Source: an uncultured Smithella sp. (lineage in GTDB: Bacteria; Desulfobacterota; Syntrophia; Syntrophales; Smithellaceae). Taken from it: a DNA stretch of 64,000 bases. The notes under the pieces were generated by a model. It had not been told where the DNA came from, ran no database searches, and worked only from the letters and a program-made list of their open reading frames with translations. Position 1 is the first letter of the stretch. Each line of letters begins with the position of its first letter. Both the position numbers and the translations under genes were made by a program. Below, piece by piece: positions 13,683 to 31,828 of this stretch. Location: the NCBI GenBank assembly GCA_964608995.1, contig CAZSQS010000003.1, forward strand, positions 3,602-67,601, in the 5' to 3' direction.

Positions 13683-13711
13683 AAATAACACCTTTAATAA
13701 GGAGTATCGTC

Positions 13712-14110: not shown

Positions 14111-14113
14111 AAA

Positions 14114-15439: not shown

Positions 15440-15454
15440 CCGGAGGGCAAGACG

Positions 15455-18225: not shown

Positions 18226-19719
18226 TCATGGTTCTGGCTCTTGGTTTTTCACCGCAATGGTGACGCGCACGACGGGCGTTTTGCCTTCGGGGAAGGAAAC
18301 GCCCGAAGGTTTTACCACATTAACCTCTCGCGCGGTGGAGGCTGAAATGCCTCGCAAATCAATCGGTTCCGTTTCAAGATGGCGTTTTTCCGCTTTCATT
18401 TTGGGATCCATTAAAACCGACAGGGAAGACGGATAGGTGATCATTTTTTTAAGCGCGAGGTGATGGGGAAGCGCATGGAGCGTGCGCACGCGCACGGGCA
18501 GCGTGGCGGGAATCATTTTTAACGCGCTCACGCGGACTTTGTCCGGGTTGATGCCGGTCACCGCCAAACCTGACGGCGTGTTGACCATGTGCTTTGTCAG
18601 CGCAAATTCTTTTTTCTCCTGCGTCAGGGACGACAAATCCAAAGACAACCGAAGCGATTTCTCATCAAGCAGGCGGAAGGCTTGCTCGGACCCCTCAAAG
18701 ATGATTCTTGCCTCGGAGAGCCTCGGTTCCTCCATTTGCCAGTTTTCGGGGATATTCTTGTATTCAATCGGGATCACCACATCGCGGCGGACGACGTCGC
18801 GCTGATACCCAAAGGACACCCACAGCAGGCAGGCCAGCCCCAGGGCAAGCAGCTTTTCTTTCGTGTTTTCACGAAGCCATCCCCAGACAATTTTTTTACG
18901 GGGAGCGGGCTGAAACCGCGCGTAAAATTTTTCCAGAAGGTCATTGAGAAGCGATGCCCCTGAAATGACCGTCAGAGATTTACCCTGGGCGACGGAGAGG
19001 CTGCCTCGCTCCTCGGAGACGACGATGCACAGCGCATCGGAGCGCTCCGTCAGTCCCAGCGCCGCCGTATGGCGAAGCCCGATGTTTTCGTACTGGGAAA
19101 TATTGATGGACAAGGGCAGATGACAGCCAAACGAAGCGACACGGTTGTTTGTAATGATCACCGCGCCGTCATGGCCTGCGGAGTGCGGATCGAAGATGCT
19201 CGAAAGCAGGGGAATGCTCAGCTGACCGTCCAGCGAGATGCCGCCGGTCAAATGCCGCTCCAGCGGGTCGTGGCCCGAAATGACAATCAGCGCGCCAATG
19301 CGCTTTTTGGCCAGTTCCCCCGCTGCTTCCGCGATGATGGCGGCGGTTTTTTCCAGTTCGGACAGAGGACGCGCCTCCTTACGGAGGTTTCCCAGCATCG
19401 CCAGACGTTCAAACAACCCGCGCAAGTCTTCCTGAAAAATGACCACGAGCACAAACAGCAAAATTGCGAAAAATCCCTGGAGAACCAAAACCGTCAGGTA
19501 CAGTTGAAAAAAACGCGCGGCCAGATACACGCCGCCTAAAAGCACAACGCCCACCAGAACATAGCGCGACGCGCGCGTCTTAAACCACATCAGGAGCGCA
19601 AAAATCATGGTCGTGATAATCGCAACGTCTAAAACATCCTGAAGGCGGATGCTCGAAAAAAATGCGGTGGCTGCTGAAAGTATGTCCATGGCATGATGTC
19701 CGATTTTGTAAGATGCCAC
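18226..19719 (-). CDS. cdaA: diadenylate cyclase CdaA fused to a YbbR/CdaR-like C-terminal region
   Basis: Three N-terminal TM helices, then the DAC domain (GALIVI, HDGAVIITNN, GLRHTAALGLTE, VVSEERG). An extra TM helix follows, then about 200 aa of YbbR-like repeats. Start uncertain (GTG 19719 or ATG 19689). Confidence 0.75.
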   Translation of the reverse strand: MASYKIGHHAMDILSAATAFFSSIRLQDVLDVAIITTMIFALLMWFKTRASRYVLVGVVLLGGVYLAARFFQLYLTVLVLQGFFAILLFVLVVIFQEDLRGLFERLAMLGNLRKEARPLSELEKTAAIIAEAAGELAKKRIGALIVISGHDPLERHLTGGISLDGQLSIPLLSSIFDPHSAGHDGAVIITNNRVASFGCHLPLSINISQYENIGLRHTAALGLTERSDALCIVVSEERGSLSVAQGKSLTVISGASLLNDLLEKFYARFQPAPRKKIVWGWLRENTKEKLLALGLACLLWVSFGYQRDVVRRDVVIPIEYKNIPENWQMEEPRLSEARIIFEGSEQAFRLLDEKSLRLSLDLSSLTQEKKEFALTKHMVNTPSGLAVTGINPDKVRVSALKMIPATLPVRVRTLHALPHHLALKKMITYPSSLSVLMDPKMKAEKRHLETEPIDLRGISASTAREVNVVKPSGVSFPEGKTPVVRVTIAVKNQEPEP

Positions 19720-19800: not shown

Positions 19801-19829
19801 TTGACATATTATGGGCATATGCTTATATC
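19801..19829 (+). promoter_or_regulatory. candidate sigma-70 promoter (TTGACA-17 nt-TATATC)
   Basis: Consensus -35 at 19801-19806 and a near-consensus -10 at 19824-19829, 21 nt upstream of the DUF134 ATG. Confidence 0.4.
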
Positions 19830-19849
19830 AAGACCGGAGGAAAAAGGTC

Positions 19850-20194
19850 ATGCCCCGTCCCAAATGCCATCGTCACGTGTGCGGCGCGCCGGATGTGCGT
19901 TATTTCAAGCCCCGCGGCATTCCCGCCCTTGAGCTTGAAGAAGTCGCATTGCATCTGGATGAATTTGAAGCCATCCGCCTGGCGGATTACGAAAAACTCT
20001 ACCAGGAAGAGGCGGCAGCCCGGATGAACATTTCCCGCCAGACCTTTGGCCGCATTATTGAAGCGGCCCGCGGCAAAATTGCCGATGCGCTCATTTCCGG
20101 CAAGGCCCTCAAAATTGAGGGCGGGCCCGTCGAAACAAAATCCAACGATTCCGGGAAGAGCGATTGCCCCTCCCGGATTTCAAAAAAACCATAA
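19850..20194 (+). CDS. DUF134 (UPF0251) putative DNA-binding protein
   Basis: MPRPKCHRHVCGAPDVRYFKPRGIP... plus an HTH-like MNISRQTFGRII. GGAGG RBS. The track ORF starts earlier, at 19811. Confidence 0.8.
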   Translation: MPRPKCHRHVCGAPDVRYFKPRGIPALELEEVALHLDEFEAIRLADYEKLYQEEAAARMNISRQTFGRIIEAARGKIADALISGKALKIEGGPVETKSNDSGKSDCPSRISKKP

Positions 20195-20206
20195 GGAGTG
20201 AAAAGT

Positions 20207-20569
20207 ATGAAAATTGCGTTACCGTCTAATCAGAAATTAGTGGATGAACATTTTGGTCATTGTGAGGCCTTTACGGTGTTCACTGTGAATGCGGACAGAC
20301 AGATCGTTTCGGAAGAAACGATTGTGCCACCTGCCGGCTGCGGCTGCAAATCCAACATCGCCCAGACGCTTGCCGAAATGGGTGTCAAGCTGATGCTCGC
20401 CGGCAACATGGGTCAGGGGGCGGTGAATATCCTGGGGCAAAACGGTATTGAGGTTCTGCGCGGCTGTTCCGGCCCCGTGAAAGACGTTGCGCAAAGGTGG
20501 CTTACCGGAACGCTGACGGATTCGGGCCTGGCGTGCGCGTCTCATGAACACGGCTGCCACGAGCATTAA
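20207..20569 (+). CDS. NifX/NifB-C-terminal/MTH1175-like (dinitrogenase FeMo-cofactor-binding fold) protein, paralog 1
   Basis: MKIALPS...HFGHCEAFTVF...MLAGNMGQGAVNILGQNGIEVL, with an added Cys/His-rich tail (CASHEHGCHEH). Confidence 0.8.
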   Translation: MKIALPSNQKLVDEHFGHCEAFTVFTVNADRQIVSEETIVPPAGCGCKSNIAQTLAEMGVKLMLAGNMGQGAVNILGQNGIEVLRGCSGPVKDVAQRWLTGTLTDSGLACASHEHGCHEH

Positions 20570-20584
20570 ACACAAGGAGGGAGA

Positions 20585-21934
20585 ATGAAGACCGCTGCGT
20601 CCGCGCCGCTCAATTCCAGCGACGGACAAAACATCATTCTGGATTCCATTGCCGATGGCGTCTTTACCGTGGATCGCGACTGGCGCATTACGTCCTTTAA
20701 CCGCGCCGCCGAAAGCATCACCGGCGTGACCCGCGCCGAGGCGATTGGTCAGTTGTGCAAAGACGTCCTCAAGGCGGACATCTGCGAAAAAAACTGCTGC
20801 CTGCGCCAGACGATGAAAAGCGGCGAGCCCATCGTCAATAAAAAAGTGCATATCATTGATGCGGGCGGACGCAAATTTCCCATCAGCATTTCCACCGCGC
20901 TTCTGCGTGATGCCAAAGGCAGGCTTCTGGGCGCCGTGGAGACTTTCCGCGATATTCGCGTGGAAGAGCACCTGCGCAAGGCGATTTCGTCGAAATATTC
21001 CTTTGAGGATATTATTTCGAAAAATCACCGCATGCAGCAGCTTTTCGATATTTTGCCAGATATTGCCGAAGGCGCAAGCACGGTGTTGATTGAAGGGGAG
21101 AGCGGCACCGGCAAGGAGCTCATCGCCCGCGCCATCCATTCGCTGAGCGCCCGAAAAAAGCAGCCGTTTGTCGCCGTCAACTGCGGCGCGCTGCCCGATG
21201 CGCTTCTGGAGTCGGAACTCTTCGGTTACAAGGCCGGCGCGTTTACCGACGCAAAAAAAGACAAACCGGGCCGCTTCCGCCTGGCCGAAAACGGCACGCT
21301 GTTTCTTGACGAAATCGGGGAGCTGACGCCTGCGATGCAGGTCAAACTCCTGCGTGTGCTTCAGGAAAAAACCTATGAGCCGCTGGGCGCAACCCAAAGT
21401 ATTGCGCATAATGTCCGCATTGTGGCGGCCACCAACAAAAATCTTGACGAACTGGTCCGCAAGCGACAATTTCGCGAGGATTTATACTACCGCATCAACG
21501 TCTTTAAAATTGTCTTGCCGCCCTTGCGCGAACGCCTGGAAGACATCCCGCTCCTTGTGGAGCATTTTATTGAACGCTTCAATCTGCTCACGAAAAAAAA
21601 TATCGAAGGCGCCAGCGCCGAAGCGATGGCCGTCCTGATGGCATACGCCTGGCCGGGAAATGTCCGGGAGCTGGCCAACCTGATCGAGCGCGCTTTTATT
21701 TTGTGCAAGGGGGGGCTCATCGAAAAGCATCACCTGCCGGAGGCGCTGATTCGCCCCGCCGCCTCCAACAACACTCCGCCGCAATCGCTTTCTGATGTCG
21801 AGGCGGCCTATCTGACGGATGCCCTTCGGGCCAACAGCTGGAACCGCCTGGAAACCGCGCGGAAGCTGGGGGTGCACAAAAGCACGCTGTACCGCCGGAT
21901 CAAGGCGCTGGGTCTCATTCTTCCGCGCGCCTGA
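20585..21934 (+). CDS. sigma-54-dependent transcriptional activator (PAS - AAA+ - Fis-type HTH)
   Basis: GESGTGKELIARAIH, ESELFGYKAGAFTDA (GAFTGA variant), RERLEDIPLL, and a C-terminal HTH (ETARKLGVHKSTLYRRI). Confidence 0.9.
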   Translation: MKTAASAPLNSSDGQNIILDSIADGVFTVDRDWRITSFNRAAESITGVTRAEAIGQLCKDVLKADICEKNCCLRQTMKSGEPIVNKKVHIIDAGGRKFPISISTALLRDAKGRLLGAVETFRDIRVEEHLRKAISSKYSFEDIISKNHRMQQLFDILPDIAEGASTVLIEGESGTGKELIARAIHSLSARKKQPFVAVNCGALPDALLESELFGYKAGAFTDAKKDKPGRFRLAENGTLFLDEIGELTPAMQVKLLRVLQEKTYEPLGATQSIAHNVRIVAATNKNLDELVRKRQFREDLYYRINVFKIVLPPLRERLEDIPLLVEHFIERFNLLTKKNIEGASAEAMAVLMAYAWPGNVRELANLIERAFILCKGGLIEKHHLPEALIRPAASNNTPPQSLSDVEAAYLTDALRANSWNRLETARKLGVHKSTLYRRIKALGLILPRA

Positions 21935-21949
21935 TCGCGCTGATAATGA

Positions 21950-22000
21950 AGTCGCTTATACGCGACTATGCTGCGACCATGGTAGCATATATGCGACTTT
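21950..22000. promoter_or_regulatory. candidate upstream activator sites: GCGAC-containing palindromes
   Basis: AGTCGC-TTATAC-GCGACT (21950-21967) and TATGCT-GCGACCATGGT-AGCATA (21967-21989), then ATGCGACT. They lie 71-121 nt upstream of the -24 element. Confidence 0.3.
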
Positions 22001-22070
22001 TCTGCGATGATTTGTCCACCAGTCTTTCTCAATATACCGTAAATAAGGTAATTATTCCTTTTGGGCTATT

Positions 22071-22086
22071 TGGCATCGGCTTTGCA
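22071..22086 (+). promoter_or_regulatory. sigma-54 (-24/-12) promoter TGGCATCGGCTTTGCA
   Basis: Matches TGGCAC-N5-TTGCA with correct GG-N10-GC spacing. It is 52 nt upstream of ATG 22138 and directly downstream of the EBP gene. Confidence 0.65.
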
Positions 22087-22137
22087 TTATGTTAAGCAGC
22101 CGCTCAAAAACCGTGTCATGCGATCGCCGGGAGATTT

Positions 22138-22578
22138 ATGAAACTTGCTGTGTCCATATTCAAGGAAAGTATTTCCACTGTTTTCGATGCCGCCGATCAA
22201 CTTTTAATTATTGAAACGGCATCCGACGGATCGCGTCAAAGGTCGCTTTTAAAAATGTCAACCTCCGAGCCGGCGTCAAGGGCCATCGAACTTAAGGCGC
22301 TCGGGGTGAATGTTTTAATCTGCGGGGCGATCTCCCGGCCCATGCAGGCCTCGATGGCCTCACAGGGGATTGAAGTCCATTCCTTTGTCCGGGGGGCAGT
22401 GGATGACGTTGTTGCTGCTTACTCCGACAATCGGCTGGGTCAGGCGATTTTTTCCCTGCCGGGCTGCCACGGTCGCGGACCGGGGAATTCGTCCTGCGCC
22501 GGGCCTGGATCCAAGGCTGTGCCCGGACGGGGACGCGGCCTGCGTTGCAAACAGGGTTCACAACGGGGGCGGGCGTAG
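22138..22578 (+). CDS. NifX/MTH1175-like protein, paralog 2, with an Arg/Gly-rich C-terminal tail
   Basis: MKLAVSIF...VFDAADQLLIIE...LKALGVNVLICGAISRPMQASMASQGIEV, then the tail GRGPGNSSCAGPGSKAVPGRGRGLRCKQGSQRGRA. Confidence 0.7.
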   Translation: MKLAVSIFKESISTVFDAADQLLIIETASDGSRQRSLLKMSTSEPASRAIELKALGVNVLICGAISRPMQASMASQGIEVHSFVRGAVDDVVAAYSDNRLGQAIFSLPGCHGRGPGNSSCAGPGSKAVPGRGRGLRCKQGSQRGRA

Positions 22579-22617
22579 GCCACTTTCCGTACACTATGAT
22601 GAAAAGGAGATAAAATA

Positions 22618-23166
22618 TTGAACGCGTTTATTCCAAAACAACTGTTTTTTACCAAGGGGGTCGGCACGCATCGGGAGCAACTGCATTCCTTTGAGCTGGC
22701 GCTGCGCGATGCGGGCATTGAGAAGTGCAACCTCGTGCAGGTTTCGAGCATTATGCCGCCCGGCTGCAAGATCATCTCACGGGCGGAGGGGCTCAAAAAG
22801 CTCAAGCCCGGCGCGATTACGTTTTGCGTCATGAGTCGCTGCTGCTCCAACGAACCCAGGCGCCTCATCTCGGCTGCGGTTGGCTGCGCGATTCCCGTGG
22901 ATAAAAAAACGTATGGCTACATCAGCGAACATCACGATTTTGGTTACACCGAGCGGCAGACGGGCGACTATGCAGAGGATCTGGCTGCCGCGATGCTCGC
23001 CTCAACGCTGGGCATCGATTTCGATGTGGATGAAAGCTGGGACGAGAAAAAGGAACTTTTTAAAATCAGCGGGAAAATTGTTGGAACGCGCAATACGACG
23101 CAATCCGCTGTCCTCAAGACGAAAGATTACACAACGGTTCTGGCTGCGGCGGTTTTTGTTTTCTAA
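22618..23166 (+). CDS. pdaD: pyruvoyl-dependent arginine decarboxylase
   Basis: [46 protein letters not shown] is typical of PvlArgDC. TTG start after AAAAGGAG. Confidence 0.8.
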
Positions 23167-23231
23167 AACTGATGTCGCACGGTTGCGTTCAACGTCGTGA
23201 GGACAGGCAGAACCTAAAGGAGGTTAACATC

Positions 23232-23453
23232 ATGAATGGAAGAAATCGCACAGGCGCAGGCCAGGGGCAGGGCGGCGGCCAGGGCCAGGGGCGCGGTGGT
23301 CAGGGCCGGGGACGCATGGGTGGTCCGGCGGCGGGAGGCGCAGTGGGCGTGTGTCTATGCCCGAATTGCGGACATACTCAGCCGCATGAACGGGGCGTGC
23401 CGTGCATGCAGGCCAAGTGTCCGAAGTGCGCGACGAATTTGATTCGGCAGTGA
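23232..23453 (+). CDS. 73-aa protein: Gly/Gln/Arg-rich N-terminus plus a CPxC...CPxC zinc ribbon
   Basis: [31 protein letters not shown]...CLCPNCGHT...[20 protein letters not shown] 7 nt upstream of ATG 23232. Confidence 0.6.
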
Positions 23454-23477
23454 GAAACAGATAAGGAGGTTTATCTT

Positions 23478-23840
23478 ATGCCAAGAGGAGATCAGACCGG
23501 CCCGATGGGCTTGGGGCCAATGACGGGAAGAGCCGCGGGATTATGCGCGGGTTACGCTGTGCCGGGATGTTTAAATTCAATGCCACGGTGCGGTGAAGGA
23601 AGAAATTTTCAACGTGGGGTCGGTTTTGGCGGTCGCGGCGGCTTCGGATTTCGCCATCGCTTTTTCGCTACCGGCATGCCGGGACGAGCCTGGTTTAACG
23701 CCTCCGCAGGTGCGTTTACCCAGGCCGATCCGGACAGGGAAAAGCAGGCGCTGAAAAACCAGGCCGATGCTCTGAGCGCCGAACTTGAGGCCATTAAAAA
23801 GCGTCTGGATGAACTGTCGGCCAATGCGTCCGGAAAGTAA
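23478..23840 (+). CDS. DUF5320-family protein
   Basis: Hallmark N-terminus MPRGDQTGPMGLGPMTGRAAGLCAG, an RGG-like middle (GFGGRGGFGFRHRF) and a C-terminal coiled coil (LKNQADALSAELEAIKKRLDEL). Confidence 0.75.
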   Translation: MPRGDQTGPMGLGPMTGRAAGLCAGYAVPGCLNSMPRCGEGRNFQRGVGFGGRGGFGFRHRFFATGMPGRAWFNASAGAFTQADPDREKQALKNQADALSAELEAIKKRLDELSANASGK

Positions 23841-23867
23841 GTTCCGGCAGTTGACAGTTGGGACATA

Positions 23868-23888
23868 GACGGAAAGATTCTTTCCGTC
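23868..23888 (+). terminator. 9-bp perfect hairpin GACGGAAAG-ATT-CTTTCCGTC (attenuator or terminator-like, no T-tract)
   Basis: Read directly, 28 nt after the DUF5320 stop. Confidence 0.25.
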
Positions 23889-23944
23889 AGGACGCCGGTG
23901 GCGTGCATACACCGCTTCGCGCCGCCGGCGCCAATTGGCTTTCG

Positions 23945-23972
23945 CAGGGAACCGCTTGCGAGCGGTTCCCTG
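23945..23972. repeat. REP1-related palindrome CAGGGAACCGCTTGCGAGCGGTTCCCTG
   Basis: 12-bp arms sharing the GGGAAC.G / C.GTTCCC ends of REP1. Intergenic, 26 nt before ATG 23998. Confidence 0.5.
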
Positions 23973-23997
23973 CATCAACAGAAAGAGGGATAAAACC

Positions 23998-24360
23998 ATG
24001 AAAATAGCCATTACCACCTCCGGCAGTGACTTGAATGCGCCGCTGGACAGCCGTTTCGGCCGCGCGCCGAAATTTTTAATCTACGATGTTGAGACGAAAG
24101 GTTTCGAGGTCATCGACAACGCGCAAAGCTTAAACGCTGCGCAGGGTGCGGGTATCCAATCCGCTCAAAATGTCGCGCGTAGCGGCGCCAAGGCACTCAT
24201 CAGCGGTCATTGCGGTCCCAAGGCGTTTCGCGTACTCCAGGCGGCGGGCATTAAAATTTACACGACAACGGCGACGACAGTCAACGAAGCGATTGGTGAA
24301 TATCATGCGGGCAAGCTGACCGAAGCCGCCTCGGCGGATGTGGAAGGGCACTGGGTATGA
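23998..24360 (+). CDS. NifX/MTH1175-like protein, paralog 3
   Basis: MKIAITTSGSDLNAPLDSRFGRAPKFLIYD...GAKALISGHCGPKAFRVLQAAGIKIY. Confidence 0.8.
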   Translation: MKIAITTSGSDLNAPLDSRFGRAPKFLIYDVETKGFEVIDNAQSLNAAQGAGIQSAQNVARSGAKALISGHCGPKAFRVLQAAGIKIYTTTATTVNEAIGEYHAGKLTEAASADVEGHWV

Positions 24361-24851
24361 ACCATTTGCAGATACGCTGCAAACCGATCGGCGTGATTCG
24401 CAGCGAGCACACTTCAACAGAAGAAACTCCCATTCAACCCGTTTATGCCAAGATGTGCCATGGTCTTGTCGAAGTGTTTCCGGAATACACAGCGGGCTTA
24501 AAGGATCTTGAAGGTTTTTCGCATCTTTATCTACTGTATTACTTCCACGCTTGCAGGGAGGTCAATCTGACGGTTAAGCCTTTTTTGCAGGATATTGAGC
24601 GCGGTGTGTTTTCCACACGGGCCCCGTGCCGTCCCAATTTTATCGGTCTGTCTGTGGTGGAGCTGCTGAGTATGGAAGGTCATGTCTTACGCGTTGAGGG
24701 TGTGGATATTCTCGACGGCACGCCGCTTCTGGACATTAAACCCTACACGGAAAAGTTTGATTTGCGCGCCGTCACCAAAAGCGGCTGGCAGGATGATGTG
24801 GATGAATCAACCGCCCACCGGCGGGGAAAGAGAGGGTATAGCCGAGCATGA
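24357..24851 (+). CDS. TsaA/YaeB (TrmO-like) SAM-dependent methyltransferase family protein
   Basis: IGVIRSEH...EGFSHLYLLYYFH...RPNFIGLSVVEL...DILDGTPLLDIKPY. ATGA overlap with the upstream gene. Confidence 0.8.
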   Translation: MNHLQIRCKPIGVIRSEHTSTEETPIQPVYAKMCHGLVEVFPEYTAGLKDLEGFSHLYLLYYFHACREVNLTVKPFLQDIERGVFSTRAPCRPNFIGLSVVELLSMEGHVLRVEGVDILDGTPLLDIKPYTEKFDLRAVTKSGWQDDVDESTAHRRGKRGYSRA

Positions 24852-25735
24852 AATCTTCCATTGACTGTATTCCCTGTTTCGTCCGCCAGGCGGCCGACGC
24901 GGTGAGCTTCGCGGCGCCGAAGGATGAAGATCGTAAACGTTTGATGCGCATTGTTCTGGAGTGGGTAAGCCATATCAATTTTGATCTGTCTCCGCCTGCC
25001 GCCGTTCAGATGATCCATCGACAATTGCGCGCCCTGACGCCTGCTGAGGATCCGTATCGTGCGGCCAAAGACCGTCAAAACGACCTGGCGGCGCGCCTGA
25101 TGCCATCGGTCCGCAAAAGAATTCTCGCGTCCTTTGACCCGCTGGACATGGCCGTGCGGTACGCGATTACCGGAAATATTCTTGATCTGGGCGCAAAAAA
25201 CAATCTGGGAATGGGGGATATTTACGCGGAATTTCAAAGCGCCTCGATCCAACCGGTTTTTGGCGACATGGCGGCGCTCAAGAAGGCCCTCTCGGGTGCC
25301 AAAAATATTTTGTATCTGGCGGACAACGCCGGAGAAATATTTTTCGACCGACTGTTGATCGAGCAGCTGGGCGGTCATAATGTGACGCTGGCCGTGCGTG
25401 GCGCGCCGGTGATCAACGACGCGACCCGCGAAGATGCTCTGGCGGCGGGTCTCGACGAAATCGTGAAGCTTATTGATAACGGTTCCGATGCGCCGGGGAC
25501 CATTTTGTCGGACTGCGGCGATGAATTTCGCCGGTGCTTTGACGAAGCGGATCTGATTATCGCCAAGGGCCAGGGCAATTTCGAGTCTCTCTCGGACGAA
25601 CCGCGTGATATCTTCTACCTGTTTCGGGTGAAGTGTCCGCTCATCAGCCGCCATGCAGGTTTCCCGGTTGGCAGCTATGTTGCCGCCAGTCGATGCGGCG
25701 GCCACCCTCCCAAATCTGAAAGAAGCGAATCATGA
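24848..25735 (+). CDS. DUF89 (ARMT1-like, damage-control phosphatase family) protein
   Basis: CIPCFVRQA..., LYLADNAGEIFFD, IIAKGQGNFESL. ATGA overlaps at both ends. Confidence 0.75.
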   Translation: MKSSIDCIPCFVRQAADAVSFAAPKDEDRKRLMRIVLEWVSHINFDLSPPAAVQMIHRQLRALTPAEDPYRAAKDRQNDLAARLMPSVRKRILASFDPLDMAVRYAITGNILDLGAKNNLGMGDIYAEFQSASIQPVFGDMAALKKALSGAKNILYLADNAGEIFFDRLLIEQLGGHNVTLAVRGAPVINDATREDALAAGLDEIVKLIDNGSDAPGTILSDCGDEFRRCFDEADLIIAKGQGNFESLSDEPRDIFYLFRVKCPLISRHAGFPVGSYVAASRCGGHPPKSERSES

Positions 25736-26595
25736 AAATTTCTGTTGCCTCCGGCAAGGGAGGAACTGGTAAAACCACGGTATCTGTTAATCTGGCCCGG
25801 ACGATGGCCTCAAGTGTGGCGCTTTTGGACTGCGATGTGGAAGAGCCCAACGCGCACCTGTTTCTTAAGGGGGAGGTCATTGACGAGGAGGTGGTCACGC
25901 TGCCCATTCCCAGGGTGGATGAATCGCTATGCGACGGTTGCGGCCTGTGCAGTAAAATCTGTGCGTTTAACGCGATTGTCACCTTCGGCACAGCGCCGCT
26001 GATTTTTCCGGAATTGTGCCATGGCTGCGGCGGCTGTGCGCGTGTTTGTCCGCCTAAAGCCATTACCGAAGAGGGACGACGCATCGGTGTGGTGGAGACG
26101 CGACGCACGGCGGACATTACGCTCATCACCGGGCGGCTCGATGTCGGGGTGGCCATGTCGCCTCCTCTGATCCGCGCCGTAAAGGCGCGCCTGAAGCAGG
26201 GGATGCCGGCGATTCTGGATGCGCCTCCCGGGACATCGTGTCCGGTGATTGCCGCGGTGCGGGATACGGACATCGTGCTTCTGGTAACGGAACCCACACC
26301 GTTTGGCCTCAATGATCTCTCTCTGGCGGTGGATATGGTGCGCGAGCTTGGCTTGCCCTTCGGCGTCATCATCAACCGCATGGGCTCGGGTGACAACCGC
26401 GTGCAGGATTACTGTGCAAAGGAGGGCATTGACATCCTGATGGAAATTCCCGATGACCGGCGCATCGCCGAGGCCTATTCCCGTGGCGAGATCATGGTGG
26501 ATGCCCTGCCCCACTATCGAATCCTTTTTGAAAATCTTTTAACAACCATCCGCAAGCGGATCTCTGAGGAAGAAAAACGTTATGCCAACCTTTAA
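25732..26595 (+). CDS. MinD/ParA-type P-loop ATPase with an inserted 2x[4Fe-4S] ferredoxin module (copy 1)
   Basis: SGKGGTGKTT, LLDCDVEEPNAHLF, CDGCGLCSKICAFNAI...CHGCGGCARVCPPKAI, and a DAPPGTSCP Walker B region. Confidence 0.85.
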   Translation: MKISVASGKGGTGKTTVSVNLARTMASSVALLDCDVEEPNAHLFLKGEVIDEEVVTLPIPRVDESLCDGCGLCSKICAFNAIVTFGTAPLIFPELCHGCGGCARVCPPKAITEEGRRIGVVETRRTADITLITGRLDVGVAMSPPLIRAVKARLKQGMPAILDAPPGTSCPVIAAVRDTDIVLLVTEPTPFGLNDLSLAVDMVRELGLPFGVIINRMGSGDNRVQDYCAKEGIDILMEIPDDRRIAEAYSRGEIMVDALPHYRILFENLLTTIRKRISEEEKRYANL

Positions 26596-27529
26596 GTATC
26601 TTTACGGTCCTGTGCCCTCGCGCCGCCTGGGGCGGTCGCTGGGGCTTGATCTGGTGCCCTTTAAAACCTGCACTTACGATTGCATCTATTGCCAGCTGGG
26701 GAAAACGACACATAAAACGACGGAAAGGCGTGAGTATGTTCCCACCGCGGAGGTTCTCAAAGAACTTCGGGAAAAACTCGCTTCCGGGCTGAAATGTGAT
26801 TATATCAGTCTGGCCGGTTCCGGAGAGCCCACGCTGCATGCGGGCATGGGGGAGCTGATCGCCAAAATCAAGGAAATGACAAAGATTCCCGTTTCGGTCA
26901 TCACCAACGGGTCGCTACTGTACCTGCCGGAGGTCCGCCAGTCGCTTCTGGGCGCAGACCTCGTTGTGCCGTCTCTGGATGCCGGTGACGCAGCGCTCTT
27001 CGAATATGTGAACCGGCCTTCTCCGGCCATTGATTTTCAGCAGATGGCCGAGGGAATCGTTTCTTTTGCCAGAGCGTATTCCGGGCGTCTGTGGCTAGAA
27101 GTCCTCCTGGTTTCCGGCGTGACCGGACTGCCTTCGGAGGCGAAAAAAATTGCGGCCTGGGCCGATAAAATCCATCCGGAAAAAATCCAGATCAACACCG
27201 TGAGCCGTCCCGCCTATGAAGATTTCGCCTGTGCCGTGGATCCGAAACAGATGAAAACGCTGGCCGGCTTATTTTCTCCGGTGGCCGAGATTCTCGAAAT
27301 CACCCATCCCGCTCACGCTGATGAAGCGAATCTGTCAAACGTCACGGACGCTGACATTATGAATCTTCTGGCGAGGCGGCCCTGTACGCTCGACGGGATC
27401 TCTGCGGGGCTTGGCCTGCATCCGCATGAGGCGGCCAAGCGCATCGAACATCTCAGAAACAACAACGCCATAGAAACAACGCGAAACGGGCGGAAAGTTT
27501 TTTATAAATTGACCAACACCCCCTTCTGA
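26582..27529 (+). CDS. radical SAM enzyme with a C-terminal winged-helix-like domain
   Basis: GPVPSRRLGRSLGLDLVPFKTCTYDCIYCQLG (CxxxCxxC), SLAGSGEPTL. 14-nt overlap with the upstream ATPase gene. Confidence 0.85.
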   Translation: MPTFKYLYGPVPSRRLGRSLGLDLVPFKTCTYDCIYCQLGKTTHKTTERREYVPTAEVLKELREKLASGLKCDYISLAGSGEPTLHAGMGELIAKIKEMTKIPVSVITNGSLLYLPEVRQSLLGADLVVPSLDAGDAALFEYVNRPSPAIDFQQMAEGIVSFARAYSGRLWLEVLLVSGVTGLPSEAKKIAAWADKIHPEKIQINTVSRPAYEDFACAVDPKQMKTLAGLFSPVAEILEITHPAHADEANLSNVTDADIMNLLARRPCTLDGISAGLGLHPHEAAKRIEHLRNNNAIETTRNGRKVFYKLTNTPF

Positions 27530-27547
27530 GGAGGCGCCCATCCGCCC

Positions 27548-27997
27548 ATGAATGACGCTTTGGAGACTAAAAAATATATTGAGGCCTGTCGGGAAACATT
27601 CTGGCAGAGGGTTTTCGCTGTTGAAGTGGACTATCTCTGTGAAAAGCTTCTGGGCTGCTCAGATGTTTTGAGCGTTGGCTGCGGTCCGGCATTCATTGAA
27701 GGAGAGCTGGCCGCGAAAGGCTATCGCGTCACCGGGCTGGATATTTCCCAGGAGGCTTTGAAGTGCGCGCCGGATAGCATTCGGACAATGGCTGGCCGGG
27801 CCGAAGACCTGTCGTTTCCAGAGTCCTCCTTCGATGCCGCCATTTTTGTGGCGTCTTTGCAATTCATTGAAGATTACCGGGCGGCGCTTAACCGTGCGGC
27901 GGCCGCATTAAAACCCGATGGCCGGATCATCGCGATGCTGCTTAACCCTGCGTCGGAATTCTACAAAGACCTGCGCCGCAAACCGGATGAATCATGA
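27548..27997 (+). CDS. class I SAM-dependent methyltransferase (short)
   Basis: VLSVGCGPAF (motif I), VTGLDIS, FDAAIFVASLQF. Confidence 0.7.
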   Translation: MNDALETKKYIEACRETFWQRVFAVEVDYLCEKLLGCSDVLSVGCGPAFIEGELAAKGYRVTGLDISQEALKCAPDSIRTMAGRAEDLSFPESSFDAAIFVASLQFIEDYRAALNRAAAALKPDGRIIAMLLNPASEFYKDLRRKPDES

Positions 27998-28026
27998 TCT
28001 TGCGAAATTAAAATGACCGGGAGGGG

Positions 28027-28650
28027 ATGCGTTTTATGCCCATCGATGAAAACGAATTAGCTCAAAATCACAAGCGCTACCGCAAGCGGATCGCGTTGTA
28101 TCGGAAATACGGATATGATGTTGACGAAGAGCGGAATTTTGTGATTGAAAAAGCAATGCCCATTTCCGGAAATATTCTGGAAGCCGGAACCGGAAAGGGT
28201 TATTTTTCGCTGGCCCTGGCCCGGCGGGGCTTTTTTTTCACCACCGTGGATGTCTCGCCTTCGGAGCAGTGGTATGCCGGGTTGAATCTGGGCTATTACG
28301 GTCTGGCGGGCCGCGTTCGTTTTGATGTGGCGGACCTGGAGCATCTTCCTTACGCCGATGCGTCTTATGATGTGATTTTTGCAGTCCATCTGGTTCATCA
28401 CCTCGCGTTAATCGAGCCCGCTTGCAGCGAACTTCTGCGGGTTTTATCGCCTTCGGGCAAAATTGTATTGAGTGACTTCAATGAAAAGGGTCGGGAGGTG
28501 GTGGATCAAATTCACGCCCTGGATGGAAAAAAGCATGAGGTAGGACCGGTGACCCTGGAGGCCGTCAAGGATTATTTGACCGATCGGGGCTTGTGGGTGG
28601 AAAAATATGAGGCAACGCATCAGGAGGTGCTGATGGCGTCGAGAGCCTGA
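28027..28650 (+). CDS. class I SAM-dependent methyltransferase
   Basis: ILEAGTGKGYFSLALARRG (motif I), TTVDVS, YDVIFAVHLVHHL. ATG 28039 is an alternative start. Confidence 0.7.
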   Translation: MRFMPIDENELAQNHKRYRKRIALYRKYGYDVDEERNFVIEKAMPISGNILEAGTGKGYFSLALARRGFFFTTVDVSPSEQWYAGLNLGYYGLAGRVRFDVADLEHLPYADASYDVIFAVHLVHHLALIEPACSELLRVLSPSGKIVLSDFNEKGREVVDQIHALDGKKHEVGPVTLEAVKDYLTDRGLWVEKYEATHQEVLMASRA

Positions 28651-28717
28651 GGCCGGATGGTCCAATGCTTTAAAAAAGGAAAGGGGGCGTAATCCCCTGG
28701 AGGACATTTTTGAGACG

Positions 28718-29587
28718 ATGAAAGAATTAGTAATTATCAGCGGGAAAGGCGGAACAGGAAAAACCTCTGTGGCGGCGTCGTTTGCGGTGCTCGCCTCGCG
28801 CGCCGTGATTTGTGATTGCGACGTGGACGCCGCGGATCTGCATTTGGTTTTAGCGCCCCAAATCCGGGAGCGTCATGAATTTCGAAGCGGGCATGAAGCC
28901 GTGATCCGGCCGGAAGATTGCTCGGGCTGCGGCGTGTGTCAGGAGATTTGCCGCTTTGATGCGATTGCGTTGGTTGACGGCGTTTATCGCATCGATCCGG
29001 TCGCCTGTGAAGGCTGTGGCGTGTGTGTGCATTTTTGCCCTGAAAAAGCGATTGACTTTCCCGAGCGTCTCTGCGGAAACTGGTTTGTTTCGGATACGCG
29101 CGTGGGGCCGATGGTGCATGCGCGTCTCGGTGTGGCGGCTGAAAATTCCGGCAAACTCGTCTCCACCGTGCGCACGGAGGCCAAGCATCTGGCCGAAGAA
29201 GAAAACTTCAATTGCGTTTTGGTGGATGGGCCTCCCGGTATTGGCTGTCCGGTCATCGCCTCGCTCACCGGCGCCTCGCAGGTTCTGGTGGTGACGGAGC
29301 CTACCGTATCGGGCGAGCATGATCTGGAGCGCGTGCTGGGGCTCGCGAGGCATTTTCAGATTCCCGCGTTTGTGTGCGTCAATAAATGGGACATCAATCC
29401 GGAGATGACCTGCCGCATCGAAAAGTCCGCCCGTGACGCAGGCGCTCGCATTGCCGGGCGCATCCGCTATGATCGGGCCGTCACCCGGGCGCAGATTGAT
29501 CAAAAAGCCGTCGTGGAAACTAAGGCCGCTTGCGCTCACGACATTAAAGAGATATGGACTTATTTGAATCAAGCAGGAGGATGTTGA
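28718..29587 (+). CDS. MinD/ParA-type P-loop ATPase with an inserted 2x[4Fe-4S] ferredoxin module (copy 2)
   Basis: SGKGGTGKTS, ICDCDVDAADLHLV, CSGCGVCQEICRFDAI...CEGCGVCVHFCPEKAI, VDGPPGIGCP. Paralog of the 25732 gene. Confidence 0.85.
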   Translation: MKELVIISGKGGTGKTSVAASFAVLASRAVICDCDVDAADLHLVLAPQIRERHEFRSGHEAVIRPEDCSGCGVCQEICRFDAIALVDGVYRIDPVACEGCGVCVHFCPEKAIDFPERLCGNWFVSDTRVGPMVHARLGVAAENSGKLVSTVRTEAKHLAEEENFNCVLVDGPPGIGCPVIASLTGASQVLVVTEPTVSGEHDLERVLGLARHFQIPAFVCVNKWDINPEMTCRIEKSARDAGARIAGRIRYDRAVTRAQIDQKAVVETKAACAHDIKEIWTYLNQAGGC

Positions 29588-29590
29588 AAA

Positions 29591-30499
29591 ATGGAGGACA
29601 AAGAAGTGGAAAACAAAAAAACGTGCAGTTCATGCACAGATTCAAGCTGCTCCGCAAAGGCAAAACAGCAGGGCGAAAGCGATAAGGACTACGCCGATCG
29701 TCAGCGGCTTCAAGCGAGGCTGTGCCGTATTGGGCATAAAATTGCCGTGCTGTCCGGCAAGGGCGGCGTCGGCAAAAGCACGGTGGCGGTGAACCTGGCC
29801 ACGGCGCTGGCGCTCAACGGGCTGCGCGTGGGGCTTTTGGATATCGATATTCACGGGCCCAGCGTTCCCACGATGCTGGGGCTTGAAGGCCAATCGCTCA
29901 AAGGCAATCCCGGTGAGATTTTTCCCGTGGAATTCGGCGGGCTCAAAGTGATGTCCATTGGCTTTTTACTGCAAAATCCCGACGATGCGGTCATCTGGCG
30001 CGGTCCCATGAAAATGGGCGTCATCAAGCAGTTTCTGACGGATGTCAACTGGGGCGATCTGGACTATCTGATCATCGATTTGCCCCCCGGCACGGGTGAC
30101 GAGCCACTGTCGCTTTGCCAGTTAATCCAGCCGCTGACCGGCGCGGTGATTGTCACGACGCCGCAAAAAGTCGCGGCGGTGGATGTGCGCAAGTCCATCA
30201 GTTTCTGCAAACGGCTGGAGGTGCCGGTTTTGGGCGTGGTGGAAAACATGAGCGGTTTTGTCTGTCCCAAGTGCGGCGAGCTGACGCAGATTTTGCCGGA
30301 GGGTGGCGGAAGAAAAATCGCAACCGACATGGATGTGCCTTTCCTGGGCGCCATTCCTCTGGATCCGGGCATTGCGCAATCCGGCGATTCCGGCAAAGTG
30401 TTTATTTATCATTCGTCCAAAACGCCGACGGGAATCATTCTGCAGGAGATTATCGATCAGATTACCGAGCCGGATAAAACAAAAAAAATTAACGCATAA
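29591..30499 (+). CDS. Mrp/NBP35/ApbC-family Fe-S cluster carrier ATPase
   Basis: N-terminal Cys cluster (CSSCTDSSC), SGKGGVGKST, DLPPGTGD and a GFVCPKCG motif. Confidence 0.85.
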   Translation: MEDKEVENKKTCSSCTDSSCSAKAKQQGESDKDYADRQRLQARLCRIGHKIAVLSGKGGVGKSTVAVNLATALALNGLRVGLLDIDIHGPSVPTMLGLEGQSLKGNPGEIFPVEFGGLKVMSIGFLLQNPDDAVIWRGPMKMGVIKQFLTDVNWGDLDYLIIDLPPGTGDEPLSLCQLIQPLTGAVIVTTPQKVAAVDVRKSISFCKRLEVPVLGVVENMSGFVCPKCGELTQILPEGGGRKIATDMDVPFLGAIPLDPGIAQSGDSGKVFIYHSSKTPTGIILQEIIDQITEPDKTKKINA

Positions 30500-30512
30500 G
30501 GAGAATGGCTTT

Positions 30513-30851
30513 ATGAAAATTGCCGTACCGTTAGCCGAAGGCAAATTGACGCTGCATTTCGGGCATTGCGCAAGCTTTGCCCTGGTCGAGGTGGATGATC
30601 AGACGAAAAAGATTCTTGGCCGCGAAGATCTTCCCGCGCCGCCGCATCAGCCGGGTCTTTTACCGCCATGGCTTGCCGAACGCGGCGCAAAGATGATTAT
30701 CGCAGGCGGCATGGGCCAGCGTGCGCAGCAGCTTTTCGCCGAGCAAGGCATCCAAGTGGTGGTCGGCGCGCCTTCCGAGGCGCCGGAAAAACTGATTGCA
30801 GACTTTTTTGCGGGCGCGCTGGAAACCGGCGCGAACGCCTGCGATCACTGA
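30513..30851 (+). CDS. NifX/MTH1175-like protein, paralog 4
   Basis: MKIAVPLAEGKLTLHFGHCASFALVEVD...AKMIIAGGMGQRAQQLFAEQGIQVV. AAGGAG RBS. The track ORF (30303) is an upstream extension. Confidence 0.8.
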   Translation: MKIAVPLAEGKLTLHFGHCASFALVEVDDQTKKILGREDLPAPPHQPGLLPPWLAERGAKMIIAGGMGQRAQQLFAEQGIQVVVGAPSEAPEKLIADFFAGALETGANACDH

Positions 30852-30871
30852 AACATTTCAGGGGGCGCGAC

Positions 30872-31828
30872 ATGGAACAGATGACCGGGCTCAAAGCGGT
30901 GGATAAGATTGAAATCTGCACCTTGCAGGACAACTACATTGAAATGACCGCGATGGACAACAATGCCGTCGTCACGCGGGCGATGGCGATCAAGGACGGT
31001 GAAATCAAAGCGTCCATTCTGGCGGAGCATGGTTTTTCGGCGCTGGTTAAAACCACGAGCGCGGATCAAGTGCACACGCTGCTTTTCGACTTCGGTTTTT
31101 CCGAAGACGGGACGGCCCGGAACGCTCAGAGCCTCGGCCTGAATATGGGCGAGGTCGAAGCGGCGGCGCTCTCCCATGGCCACAGCGATCATACCGGCGC
31201 CATGAAAGCGTTAGGCCGAGCTATCGGCAAAAAACACATCCCCCTGGCCGTGCACCCCACAGCCTTTAAAGCGCCGCGGTACCTGAAGCTGGGCGAGCAA
31301 CTCAAATTCTACTTTCCGAAGTTCACGCGCGAGATGATCAAGGATGCGGGTTTTGAACCGGTGGAAACGGAAAATCCCTATCCGCTGCTTGATTCTACGG
31401 TGCTATTCCTGGGCGGCATTCCCCGCCGGACGGATTTTGAAAAAGGGTTTCCCATCGCCCATCGTCTCGAAGATGGCAAAGAAGCCTGGGACGCCATTGA
31501 AGACGATACGTCGGTGGTGATGAATTTAAAAAACAAGGGTCTGGTGATTTTATCCGGCTGCGCGCACGCGGGTATTGTCAATACAGTGCAATACGCCATT
31601 GATGTTACGGGTGTCGCTTCGGTGCATGCGATCATGGGTGGGTTTCATCTGTCCGGGCCTTTTTTTGAACCGATCATCGACCGTACCGCCGCGGAATTGC
31701 AAAAATTCAAACCGGCCTACGTCATCCCGACACACTGCACGGGCCGCAAGGCGATTATGGAAATCGAAAAGAAGATGCCCGAGCAATTTATTTTGAACAT
31801 GGCGGGAACGAAGCTTACGTTCAATTAA
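30872..31828 (+). CDS. metallo-beta-lactamase-fold hydrolase
   Basis: EHGFSALV..., the HGHSDHTG (HxHxDH) motif and LSGCAHAG. 318 aa from ATG 30872. Confidence 0.7.
   Translation: MEQMTGLKAVDKIEICTLQDNYIEMTAMDNNAVVTRAMAIKDGEIKASILAEHGFSALVKTTSADQVHTLLFDFGFSEDGTARNAQSLGLNMGEVEAAALSHGHSDHTGAMKALGRAIGKKHIPLAVHPTAFKAPRYLKLGEQLKFYFPKFTREMIKDAGFEPVETENPYPLLDSTVLFLGGIPRRTDFEKGFPIAHRLEDGKEAWDAIEDDTSVVMNLKNKGLVILSGCAHAGIVNTVQYAIDVTGVASVHAIMGGFHLSGPFFEPIIDRTAAELQKFKPAYVIPTHCTGRKAIMEIEKKMPEQFILNMAGTKLTFN

Follow-up and report, generated by a model that had tools for sequence, protein, structure and literature searches.

We analyzed a 64,000-nucleotide stretch of contig CAZSQS010000003.1 (GenBank assembly GCA_964608995.1) from an uncultured Smithella sp., hereafter called the window, in which an array related to the orp (orange protein) system of Desulfovibrio occupies positions 19850-31828. 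The complex of the orange protein (ORP) has been studied in Desulfovibrio since 2011 in terms of its regulation, iron-sulfur (Fe-S) loading and Mo/Cu cluster, and its biochemical role is unsolved (PMC8359166, PMC6345978). All evidence presented here is sequence-based. A preliminary description of the region, made from the letters alone, had counted 19 genes; we count 18, all co-directional on the plus strand and as closely packed as it had stated, with 4-nt ATGA overlaps at three junctions (24357, 24848 and 25732), one 14-nt overlap at 26582 and remaining gaps of 3-67 nt, apart from two wider spacers at 21935-22137 and 23841-23997. A Pfam family was assigned to 17 of the 18 proteins, and the remaining open reading frame (ORF; 23232-23453) has no family. 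Antisense ORFs of up to 410 aa gave zero Pfam matches, on which ground the long ones were ruled out as genuine genes. Elsewhere in the window, over 52 kb, there is no paralogue of the NifX-like proteins or of the radical S-adenosylmethionine (SAM) protein described below, and a MinD-ferredoxin query found one weak partial match there (31% over 100 aa, E 4e-5). Both controls support a real and local array.

The array is likely divided into a regulatory unit, DUF134-NifX1-OrpR, and one sigma-54 unit of 15 genes at 22138-31828, because the terminator scan found no intergenic terminator-like site within the array, every listed site lying inside a coding region. The Rfam scan over 17-35 kb returned no family. 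The regulatory unit is probably sigma-70 driven, as is orpR in Desulfovibrio vulgaris Hildenborough (DvH) (PMC3897727). A possible sigma-70 promoter, TTGACA-17-TATATC, was read directly from the sequence at 19801-19829 ahead of this unit; it is a weak candidate, unlisted by the consensus scan and without the final T of its second hexamer. The first gene encodes a predicted DNA-binding protein of the DUF134 (UPF0251) family. This assignment of the preliminary description agrees with Pfam (PF02001, 5.7e-28), and the start that it had placed at 19811 is corrected to the ATG at 19850, which follows a GGAGG motif (19850-20194). DUF134 orthologues of 66-86% identity head the arrays of Syntrophales relatives. 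The second gene (20207-20569) encodes NifX-fold protein 1 (NifX1), a Cys-rich protein of the TM1816 type (Pfam Nitro_FeMo-Co 3e-22; PDB 1T3V/1O13, ~2e-9).

The third gene (20585-21934) encodes a sigma-54 enhancer-binding protein with PAS, AAA+ and Fis-type helix-turn-helix (HTH) domains (Pfam PAS, Sigma54_activat and HTH_8, 6e-70), in agreement with the earlier reading of a PAS-sigma-54 activator. Its Cys triad, C58-x8-C67-x3-C71 with D60 at +2, has the spacing of C52/C61/C65 and D/E54 in DvH OrpR, and its sigma-54 contact motif is GAFTDA, a rare variant that is the same in DVU2106. Both the triad and GAFTDA were kept in 35 of 37 OrpR orthologue rows, the remaining two being partial matches only, and the OrpR-like genes of the surveyed loci keep the Cys triad. 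By these signatures the activator is of the OrpR type, with predicted [4Fe-4S] binding. DvH OrpR holds a [4Fe-4S] cluster on its PAS domain and is active at low redox potential only (PMC8359166).

The spacer between OrpR and the first structural gene, NifX2, contains two tandem imperfect palindromes (21950-21998, unstranded), AGTCGCttatacGCGACT at 21950-21967 and GGTAGCatataTGCGACT at 21981-21998. They share their layout with the OrpR site of DvH, the 17-bp palindrome GGGCGYRTTTTGCGCCC, and differ in the half-site, which is GTCGC here and GGCGC in DvH. Comparable GTCGCA-N4-TGCGAC-like sites were found 145-210 nt 5' of the NifX2 gene in most orthologous spacers, and the palindromes are likely OrpR upstream activating sites. 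Downstream of them, a sigma-54 -24/-12 element, TGGCAT-N5-TTGCA (TGGCATcggctTTGCA; 22071-22086), lies 52 nt 5' of NifX2. Considering that the -24/-12 motif is not enriched window-wide (4 matches against 6.4 expected), the promoter call rests on position and conservation. The comparison covered 21 orthologous spacers between OrpR and NifX2, whose sources range from Smithella relatives to loci with the labels Bacteroidota, Eisenbacteria and Deferrimicrobium (here and below, taxon labels of surveyed loci are those of the metagenome-assembled genome (MAG) records). All 21 have the pattern TGGC[AC][CT]-N7-G[CA] 42-83 nt 5' of the NifX2 gene, 19 of them with the canonical GC, and shuffled spacers gave on average 0.12 occurrences per 21. 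The position and conservation of this predicted promoter, which the preliminary description had placed at 22071, are far beyond chance.

The sigma-54 unit begins with NifX-fold protein 2 (NifX2; 22138-22578), a divergent member (Pfam Nitro_FeMo-Co 6.9e-9, 36.3 bits against a cut-off of 26.3) that matched none of the PDB sequences and that follows OrpR in every examined locus bearing the spacer. The third NifX-fold protein (23998-24360; Pfam Nitro_FeMo-Co 9e-25) matched D. gigas ORP (PDB 2WFB) at 9.2e-23 over residues 2-111 and MTH1175 at 6e-22. It is an ORP (Orp8) homologue by sequence. The fourth NifX-fold protein (NifX4; 30513-30851; Pfam Nitro_FeMo-Co 6e-20) directly follows an Mrp/NBP35 Fe-S carrier ATPase (29591-30499; Pfam ParA/NUBPL 8e-104), as which this gene had already been described. 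The ATPase carries the Walker A motif GKGGVGKS and a CPKC motif in its translation, and it aligned with positions 2-256 of the NCBIfam MrpORP model NF041136 at 385 bits, compared with 249 bits for ApbC. NifX4 covered positions 265-364 of the same model (127.9 bits, 5.7e-37). The two genes thus appear to be the P-loop and Di-Nase halves of a split MrpORP (Orp9), 13 nt apart, neither of which alone reaches the 450-bit cut-off of NF041136. Fused and unfused MrpORP forms intermix in phylogeny, and MrpORP delivers Fe-S clusters to Orp3, Orp4 and Orp8 in vitro (PMC6345978). Pairwise identity among the four NifX-like proteins is 24-34%. They had been called paralogous; Pfam Nitro_FeMo-Co recognized all four, and the paralogy of NifX2 was not borne out by BLASTP, in which it showed no detectable similarity to the other three. 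As a side observation, the C-terminal ~45 residues of NifX2 form a Gly/Arg/Cys-rich tail (GCHGRGPGNSSCAGPGS...GRGRG), weakly like the C-terminal tails of Zn_ribbon_8 proteins in compact ORP loci (L088 in our numbering of loci; E 0.006).

Two MinD/ParA-type ATPases, copy A (25732-26595) and copy B (28718-29587), each contain an inserted 2x[4Fe-4S] ferredoxin module, as had been read from their translations, and resemble Orp3/Orp4. Pfam detected CbiA/MinD and two Fer4 motifs in both; the motifs in translation are CDGCGLCSKIC and CHGCGGCARVC in copy A, and CSGCGVCQEIC and CEGCGVCVHFC in copy B. The two copies are paralogues with 34% identity. Taken with the activator and the ORP and MrpORP homologues, this ATPase pair bears out the claim of an orp-type locus, and the profile searches that had been named as a check place the NifX-like proteins and the MinD/Mrp ATPases where they were expected. 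We are highly confident, on sequence similarity, that the locus is the Syntrophales (Smithella-like) form of the orp system.

In DvH, orpR (DVU2106) lies between two divergent sigma-54 operons, orp3-5 and orp7-9; Orp3 and Orp4 are MinD-like with two [4Fe-4S] motifs each, Orp8 is the orange protein, Orp9 is MrpORP with Mrp/NBP35 and Di-Nase (NifX) domains, and Orp5 is a small [2Fe-2S] protein (PMC6345978, PMC8359166). Experiments in DvH showed that the Orp proteins form a physical complex and that loss of expression alters cell morphology (PMC6345978, PMC8359166). The window shares with the orp genes of DvH (DVU2103-DVU2109) and D. alaskensis G20 an OrpR-type activator with the Cys triad and GAFTDA. 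As in DvH, a sigma-54 promoter lies 3' of palindromic upstream activating sites, and the genes encode two MinD-like ATPases with two [4Fe-4S] motifs, an ORP, and an Mrp/NBP35 module followed by a Di-Nase (NifX) module. However, the window differs from DvH in that its genes form one collinear plus-strand array instead of two divergent operons, as the preliminary description had noticed, the divergent layout being an architectural trait of the DvH locus that perhaps does not define the system, and in that MrpORP is split into two genes. It also holds ten further genes: PdaD, a 73-aa protein, DUF5320, a TrmO-like protein, DUF89, radical SAM, two methyltransferases, a metallo-beta-lactamase-fold (MBL) hydrolase and at least one NifX. 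The NifX genes beyond the DvH complement number at least one, or two if neither extra NifX has a DvH counterpart. We suspect that Orp5 is of the Zn_ribbon_8 type, judged by its size and Cys content. No Zn_ribbon_8 homologue was found in the window, and relatives carry both Zn_ribbon_8 proteins and small Cys/His-rich proteins of the 73-aa type.

Among the further genes, the radical-SAM gene (26582-27529; Pfam Radical_SAM 1.4e-13) lies between the two ATPase genes and encodes an enzyme with a single CX3CX2C motif and a C-terminal winged-helix domain that resembles ArsR/TrmB HTH domains. Across 20 homologues, only C30, C34 and C37 were invariant, with one further Cys conserved at 90% or more. Its AlphaFold2 model (predicted local distance difference test (pLDDT) score 78) was compared with the PDB using Foldseek and matched pyruvate formate-lyase activase, TYW1, viperin, NifB, MoaA and LipA with E values from 4e-9 to 1e-6. 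The sequence matched BlsE alone in the PDB (8e-5), reached no NCBIfam family cut-off and gave no match to TIGR01290 nifB at E <= 1e-3. The family is large, comprising 1,103 clusters at 50% identity (E <= 1e-30). Three cluster representatives (P0059, P0121 and P0152) are fusions of radical SAM with Methyltransf_11, one is fused to an HD domain, and another (P0135) carries an N-terminal Nitro_FeMo-Co domain. Copies apart from orp genes adjoin CGGC-domain metal-binding proteins (NC10, Phycisphaerales) or a methyltransferase (Geobacter). At two loci with NC10 and Phycisphaerales labels, a CGGC-domain (PF08821) protein is encoded directly 3' of the radical-SAM gene with no orp genes near (L050, 10988-11566; L061, 1266-1706).

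Two small Cys/Gly-rich proteins are encoded upstream of the ORP gene. The first (23232-23453) had been listed as a 93-aa ORF; its true start is the ATG at 23232, preceded by an AAGGAGG motif, which gives 73 aa. This unannotated protein has no Pfam or NCBIfam match and is conserved across phyla. Its N-terminal half is disordered and RG/QG-rich, some family members starting with the DUF5320 motif MPRGDGTGP, and its C-terminal half forms an invariant metal knuckle, C-x-C-P-x-C-G...H...C-x4-C-P-x-C, modelled by AlphaFold2 with a pLDDT of ~90. Foldseek searches with the model found Zn-ribbon or rubredoxin-like matches only, all non-significant. All 76 database homologues of the family are named hypothetical, two of them having an N-terminal DUF5320, and in orp-type loci from many phyla the family is conserved beside DUF5320. 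The second small protein (23478-23840) is DUF5320 itself (Pfam PF17253, 6.4e-29). Between the DUF5320 and ORP genes, the 157-nt intercistronic spacer at 23841-23997 (plus strand) is highly structured, with several GC-rich hairpins and no U tract (minimum free energy -81.5 kcal/mol, z = -8). Relatives from several lineages have comparable GC-rich hairpins in this spacer, and the element may act in intra-operon processing, stabilization or attenuation.

The domain calls of the preliminary description for the enzymes (radical SAM, two methyltransferases, DUF89, TsaA, PdaD and MBL) and for DUF5320 agree with Pfam, the Lactamase_B match being weak. The pyruvoyl-dependent arginine decarboxylase PdaD (22618-23166; Pfam PvlArgDC 6e-62) is 87-97% identical across Syntrophales arrays. 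The TrmO/TsaA-like SAM-binding protein (24357-24851; Pfam TrmO_N 7e-40) has 164 aa, with TrmO_N as its sole matched domain. Its gene shares an ATGA overlap with the ORP gene, and in loci with Acidobacteriota, Bacteroidota and Euryarchaeota labels it adjoins orp genes; this context suggests a different substrate. The DUF89/ARMT1-like metal-dependent phosphatase (24848-25735; Pfam PF01937 8e-66) is of the subfamily I type, matching the archaeal subfamily I structures PDB 2FFJ (2e-41) and 2G8L (5e-39); its NCBIfam equivalog scores are under the cut-offs (171.7 against 440 and 142 against 500). In distant loci, the DUF89 gene usually lies just 5' of the first MinD-ferredoxin or radical-SAM gene.

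Two class I SAM methyltransferases follow the radical-SAM gene. Methyltransferase 1 (27548-27997; Pfam Methyltransf_11 4e-18) has 149 aa compared with 216 aa in its orthologue at locus L002. Since ~69 C-terminal residues are absent, it may be impaired or work as a shortened form; the same shortening is apparently present in locus L007. Methyltransferase 2 (28027-28650; Pfam Methyltransf_11 2e-18) has orthologues of 49-94% identity in relatives. The last gene of the array encodes the MBL hydrolase (30872-31828; Pfam Lactamase_B 8e-6), which is of the TM1679/2P4Z type (PDB 2P4Z 8.5e-20 and 3H3E 6e-16, 2P4Z and TM1679 being proteins of unknown function), and its orthologues, which close the Syntrophales arrays, are 62-88% identical. 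None of the methyltransferases, DUF5320, the 73-aa protein and the MBL hydrolase reached an NCBIfam cut-off.

To place the array among its relatives, we looked for relatives of the radical-SAM protein in GTDB, with each species represented by one genome. The scan gave more than 580, of which the 80 best loci were retained and each searched with all 18 window proteins using tblastn. The closest relative is locus L007, a Smithella MAG whose radical-SAM protein is 95% identical, and the proteins of Smithellaceae/Syntrophaceae MAGs are 58-86% identical. Across these Syntrophales relatives (58-95%) the array is collinear, with gains and losses: DUF89 is present or absent, and there are one to two methyltransferases. 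In every one of the 13 close loci with sufficient flank, and in no fewer than 6 of the 34 distant ones, the radical-SAM gene lies between two MinD-ferredoxin genes; short contigs with the labels Elusimicrobia, Lentisphaeraceae and Eubacteriales show the same order of three genes. The 34 distant loci (radical-SAM identity 49-56%) were chosen only for their radical-SAM relative, and their titles include Kiritimatiellia, Lentisphaerae, Acidobacteriota, Bacteroidota, Eisenbacteria, Actinomycetota, NC10, Verrucomicrobiota and Euryarchaeote. Within 10 kb of the radical-SAM gene, 79% of the distant loci have a NifX-like gene, 74% MinD-ferredoxin, 62% DUF5320, 56% an OrpR-type activator, 47% Mrp, 44% the 73-aa knuckle protein and 32% DUF89; MBL was counted in 47%, some of these matches being weak, and tblastn assigns genes only coarsely to generic families such as MBL hydrolases and class I methyltransferases. 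The linkage of the extra genes to orp cores, which the preliminary description had put forward for a neighbourhood survey, is thus strong for radical SAM and DUF5320, moderate for DUF89, MBL, TrmO and the methyltransferases, and weak for PdaD and DUF134.

A reverse survey started from D. gigas ORP yielded four compact loci (L087, L088, L090 and L091), whose ORPs are 68-75% identical to it. Their gene order is ORP, MinD-ferredoxin, MinD-ferredoxin and NifX, followed by Zn_ribbon_8 in three of the four. This is the same backbone order, with the same four core families, as in the window. By this comparison, the window keeps the compact backbone order with enzymes at fixed slots. Unlike the window, the compact loci have no adjoining OrpR-type activator, a response-regulator sigma-54 activator lying a few kb away in L088 and L091, and they lack PdaD and MBL too. 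In L087, DUF134 and an RG/QG-rich small protein are encoded upstream of the compact module.

Taken all together, the sigma-54 unit may be viewed as an orp backbone, consisting of ORP, MinD-ferredoxin A, MinD-ferredoxin B and a NifX-fold protein, plus the Mrp carrier, into which TrmO-like and DUF89 genes would be intercalated between ORP and ATPase A, and radical SAM and two methyltransferases between ATPases A and B, with PdaD, the two Gly/Cys-rich small proteins and the MBL hydrolase at the edges. It is quite probable that the radical-SAM gene is functionally part of the orp module. The most likely interpretation of the whole, by gene content and order, is a low-redox-induced, SAM-dependent maturation module for a metallocluster or cofactor. 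For this explanation in full, comprising the orp form, the layout and the proposed working, we see about an even chance.

The module could work in four steps. OrpR would hold a [4Fe-4S] cluster on its PAS Cys triad and be active only at low redox, a property transferred from DvH OrpR by the conserved ligands. It would then bind the palindromes at 21950-21998 and open the -24/-12 promoter at 22071, sites whose conservation is seen in the orthologous spacers. Mrp would load Fe-S clusters onto both MinD-ferredoxin ATPases and the NifX-fold proteins, by analogy with DvH MrpORP in vitro. Finally, the ATPase pair would supply the radical-SAM enzyme with low-potential electrons under ATP gating, or act as its scaffold, and this enzyme, with the methyltransferases and perhaps the TrmO-like and DUF89 proteins, would tailor a metallocluster or its organic ligand; the product would be held on the NifX-fold carriers or the Cys-rich small proteins. 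Radical-SAM enzymes need a low-potential electron donor. A donor or scaffold role of the ATPase pair is the simplest model because MinD-ferredoxin genes flank the radical-SAM gene in many lineages. Drawn from gene linkage and fusions, this fourth step is tentative, and we consider it possible rather than probable.

The logic of the fourth step would resemble that of Nif (NifB/NifH/NifX) or Hyd maturation. Parts analogous to iron-molybdenum (FeMo)-cofactor assembly (NifB, NifX/NafY and NifH) are the radical-SAM protein, the NifX-fold carriers, the SIMIBI-class Fe-S ATPases and SAM chemistry. In contrast with Nif, however, none of the 18 array genes matches NifE, NifN, NifD or NifK, and the ATPases are of the MinD type with a ferredoxin insert, not NifH. 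Against Fer4_NifH, copy A scored 26.9 bits at a 25-bit cut-off with no qualifying matched stretch, and copy B had no match. The resemblance to Nif or Hyd is, as an analogy, one of logic and not of membership. The Mrp protein similarly shares the deviant Walker A motif GKGGVGKS and CXXC with the Mrp/NBP35/ApbC carriers of the cytosolic iron-sulfur assembly (CIA)-like branch. Unlike these carriers, it is co-operonic with its presumed clients and has its own N-terminal CxxCx4C and a separate NifX-fold partner gene.

Several observations weigh against a dedicated maturation module. The DvH operons as described lack radical-SAM-type extras (PMC6345978, PMC8359166), and none of the four compact ORP loci has, within 9-10 kb, a gene for radical SAM, a methyltransferase, TrmO, DUF89 or Mrp, so that the enzymes are, as had been claimed, absent from the orp operons described. 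In the distant loci, a methyltransferase was found within 10 kb of the radical-SAM gene in 29%, TrmO in 24%, PdaD in 18% and DUF134 in 6%. By this survey, the extra genes are common and not obligatory companions of orp cores. Moreover, the 80 loci are the best-scoring relatives of one radical-SAM protein and may over-represent an orp-linked subfamily. Locus L007 has neither NifX1 nor DUF5320 and carries ~1.6 kb inserted between the NifX4 and MBL genes; array content is plastic even between close relatives, since L007 differs. By their profile scores, PdaD (NF009064, 211.3 against 207; TIGR00286, 147.6 against 106.95) and TrmO (TIGR00104, 128.3 against 93.25) are equivalog-level matches to unrelated housekeeping functions. 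As for the radical-SAM protein, NifB-like auxiliary cluster ligands and SPASM or twitch motifs were not found in the 20 homologues, and there is no sign of NifB-type or SPASM auxiliary clusters because the CX3CX2C Cys alone are invariant. In its model, the fold is non-diagnostic for the subfamily, the neighbours matching about equally. The NifX/radical-SAM fusion P0135 is weak evidence, coming from a single 3.5-kb metagenomic contig with uninformative flanks.

The alternative that survives best accepts the orp core as real and takes PdaD, TrmO, DUF89, radical SAM, the methyltransferases and MBL as separate anaerobic housekeeping tasks (polyamine synthesis, tRNA modification and metabolite repair) placed under the OrpR/sigma-54 promoter with no common pathway. 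Such a mosaic operon would fit the equivalog-level scores of PdaD and TrmO, the patchy occurrence of these two genes, the methyltransferases and DUF89 outside Syntrophales, the differing content of the 95%-identical L007, and the fact that the DvH operons and the compact ORP loci function with none of these genes (PMC6345978). However, a mosaic does not readily account for the radical-SAM gene being flanked by both MinD-ferredoxin genes in close and distant loci and on short contigs with other phylum labels, for orp-type genes within 10 kb of it in ~75-80% of the distant loci, or for the repeated fusions of radical-SAM and methyltransferase domains. In loci with the labels Acidobacteriota, Kiritimatiellia, Lentisphaerae and Bacteroidota, DUF89 and TrmO also occupy the same slots, directly behind ORP and ahead of ATPase A. 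We regard the mosaic operon as rather unlikely.

A second alternative, which seems quite improbable to us, is that the radical-SAM enzyme and the methyltransferases tailor proteins or peptides, modifying DUF5320, the 73-aa knuckle protein and the NifX2 tail into modified cluster ligands or carriers in a RiPP-like (RiPP: a ribosomally made peptide with post-translational modifications) or activase-like manner. In Foldseek, the radical-SAM model had its best match in pyruvate formate-lyase activase with a peptide substrate (3cb8, 4e-9), the core is compact with a single cluster, conserved small RG/QG-rich proteins with invariant Cys and His share the operon across phyla, and DUF5320 is frequent at the distant radical-SAM loci. 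Yet TYW1, viperin, NifB and MoaA score within two orders of magnitude of the top match, and the RG/QG-rich proteins also occur in the compact locus L087, which has no radical-SAM gene, while L007 has the radical-SAM gene and not DUF5320. Furthermore, no leader-peptide recognition (RRE) domain, protease or exporter was seen.

RNA or tRNA modification by the TrmO-like protein, a TYW1-like radical-SAM protein with a winged helix and the methyltransferases, with an incidental position beside orp, is very improbable: it has in its favour the TIGR00104 score, the Joint Genome Institute (JGI) name 'wyosine synthetase (radical SAM)' given to homologues, the third-best structural match to TYW1 and the HTH-like winged helix, but the TYW1 model TIGR03972 scored only 26.9 bits against a cut-off of 318 with no second conserved cluster motif, the TrmO-like protein lacks the C-terminal domain that E. 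coli TrmO has, and no RNA-modification genes were seen beside the orphan radical-SAM copies.

Returning to the maturation module, the survey can be read more broadly. The orp system would then be an ancient, widespread, radical-SAM-dependent machine for maturing a metallocofactor or protein-bound cluster, with the Orp3/Orp4-type heterodimer as ATP-driven reductase or scaffold and the NifX-fold and Cys-rich knuckle proteins as carriers, and the Desulfovibrio and compact loci would be reduced versions. This broader proposal is speculative, and we hold it as doubtful. If the compact loci are such reduced versions, this would explain the obscurity of ORP complex function, and if the module builds or tailors a cofactor, it would join Nif, Hyd and Hcg as a further radical-SAM-based metallocofactor pathway. 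An uncharacterized radical-SAM enzyme, often accompanied by SAM methyltransferases, DUF89 and a TrmO-like protein, is embedded between Orp3/Orp4 homologues in many anaerobic lineages and offers a concrete clue to what the ORP complex does. Three unannotated or uncharacterized families (radical-SAM/winged-helix, DUF5320 and the 73-aa Cys/His knuckle protein) are flagged as probable components of a single anaerobe-specific module. Both the orp cluster and its regulation were known before, and the expanded collinear form is new among the literature searched. In that search, which did not include the 2011 orp-cluster and 2016 DUF89 papers, no paper linked DUF134, DUF5320, MinD-ferredoxin, radical-SAM and NifX-like genes, the cross-phylum linkage of the radical-SAM family, DUF5320, DUF89, the TrmO-like protein and the 73-aa protein to orp cores was undescribed, and no bacterial orp paper after 2021 was found.

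Several Syntrophales relatives (L002-L006, L008 and L024) carry in-array genes that are absent from the window. These include a gene for an 85-aa Zn_ribbon_8 protein between the MinD-ferredoxin A and radical-SAM genes, one for a 212-aa polytopic membrane protein after TrmO or DUF89, NifU_N genes, and a CGGC-domain ORF before the ORP gene. In addition, DnaJ and phosphatidylserine (PS) decarboxylase genes were found in the L002 array, and MoaA and MoaE in that of L005. Downstream of the arrays, the Syntrophales relatives share 4HBT thioesterase and Pyr_redox-rhodanese genes.

The flanks of the array are ordinary chromosome. Downstream lie a DUF481 gene and beta-oxidation genes; upstream are genes for glycine cleavage (gcvT, gcvPA and gcvPB) followed by lipoyl synthase (lipA), together at 12600-17769 on the plus strand, and a CdaA-YbbR gene. 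The listed lipA ORF overlaps gcvPB by ~300 nt, so the true start is probably near 16900, and an N-terminal extension of lipoyl synthase was rejected. On the minus strand, at 18226-19719, one ORF of 497 aa encodes both a diadenylate cyclase (CdaA_N and DAC) and, at the C-terminus, a YbbR domain; CdaA and CdaR are usually separate proteins.

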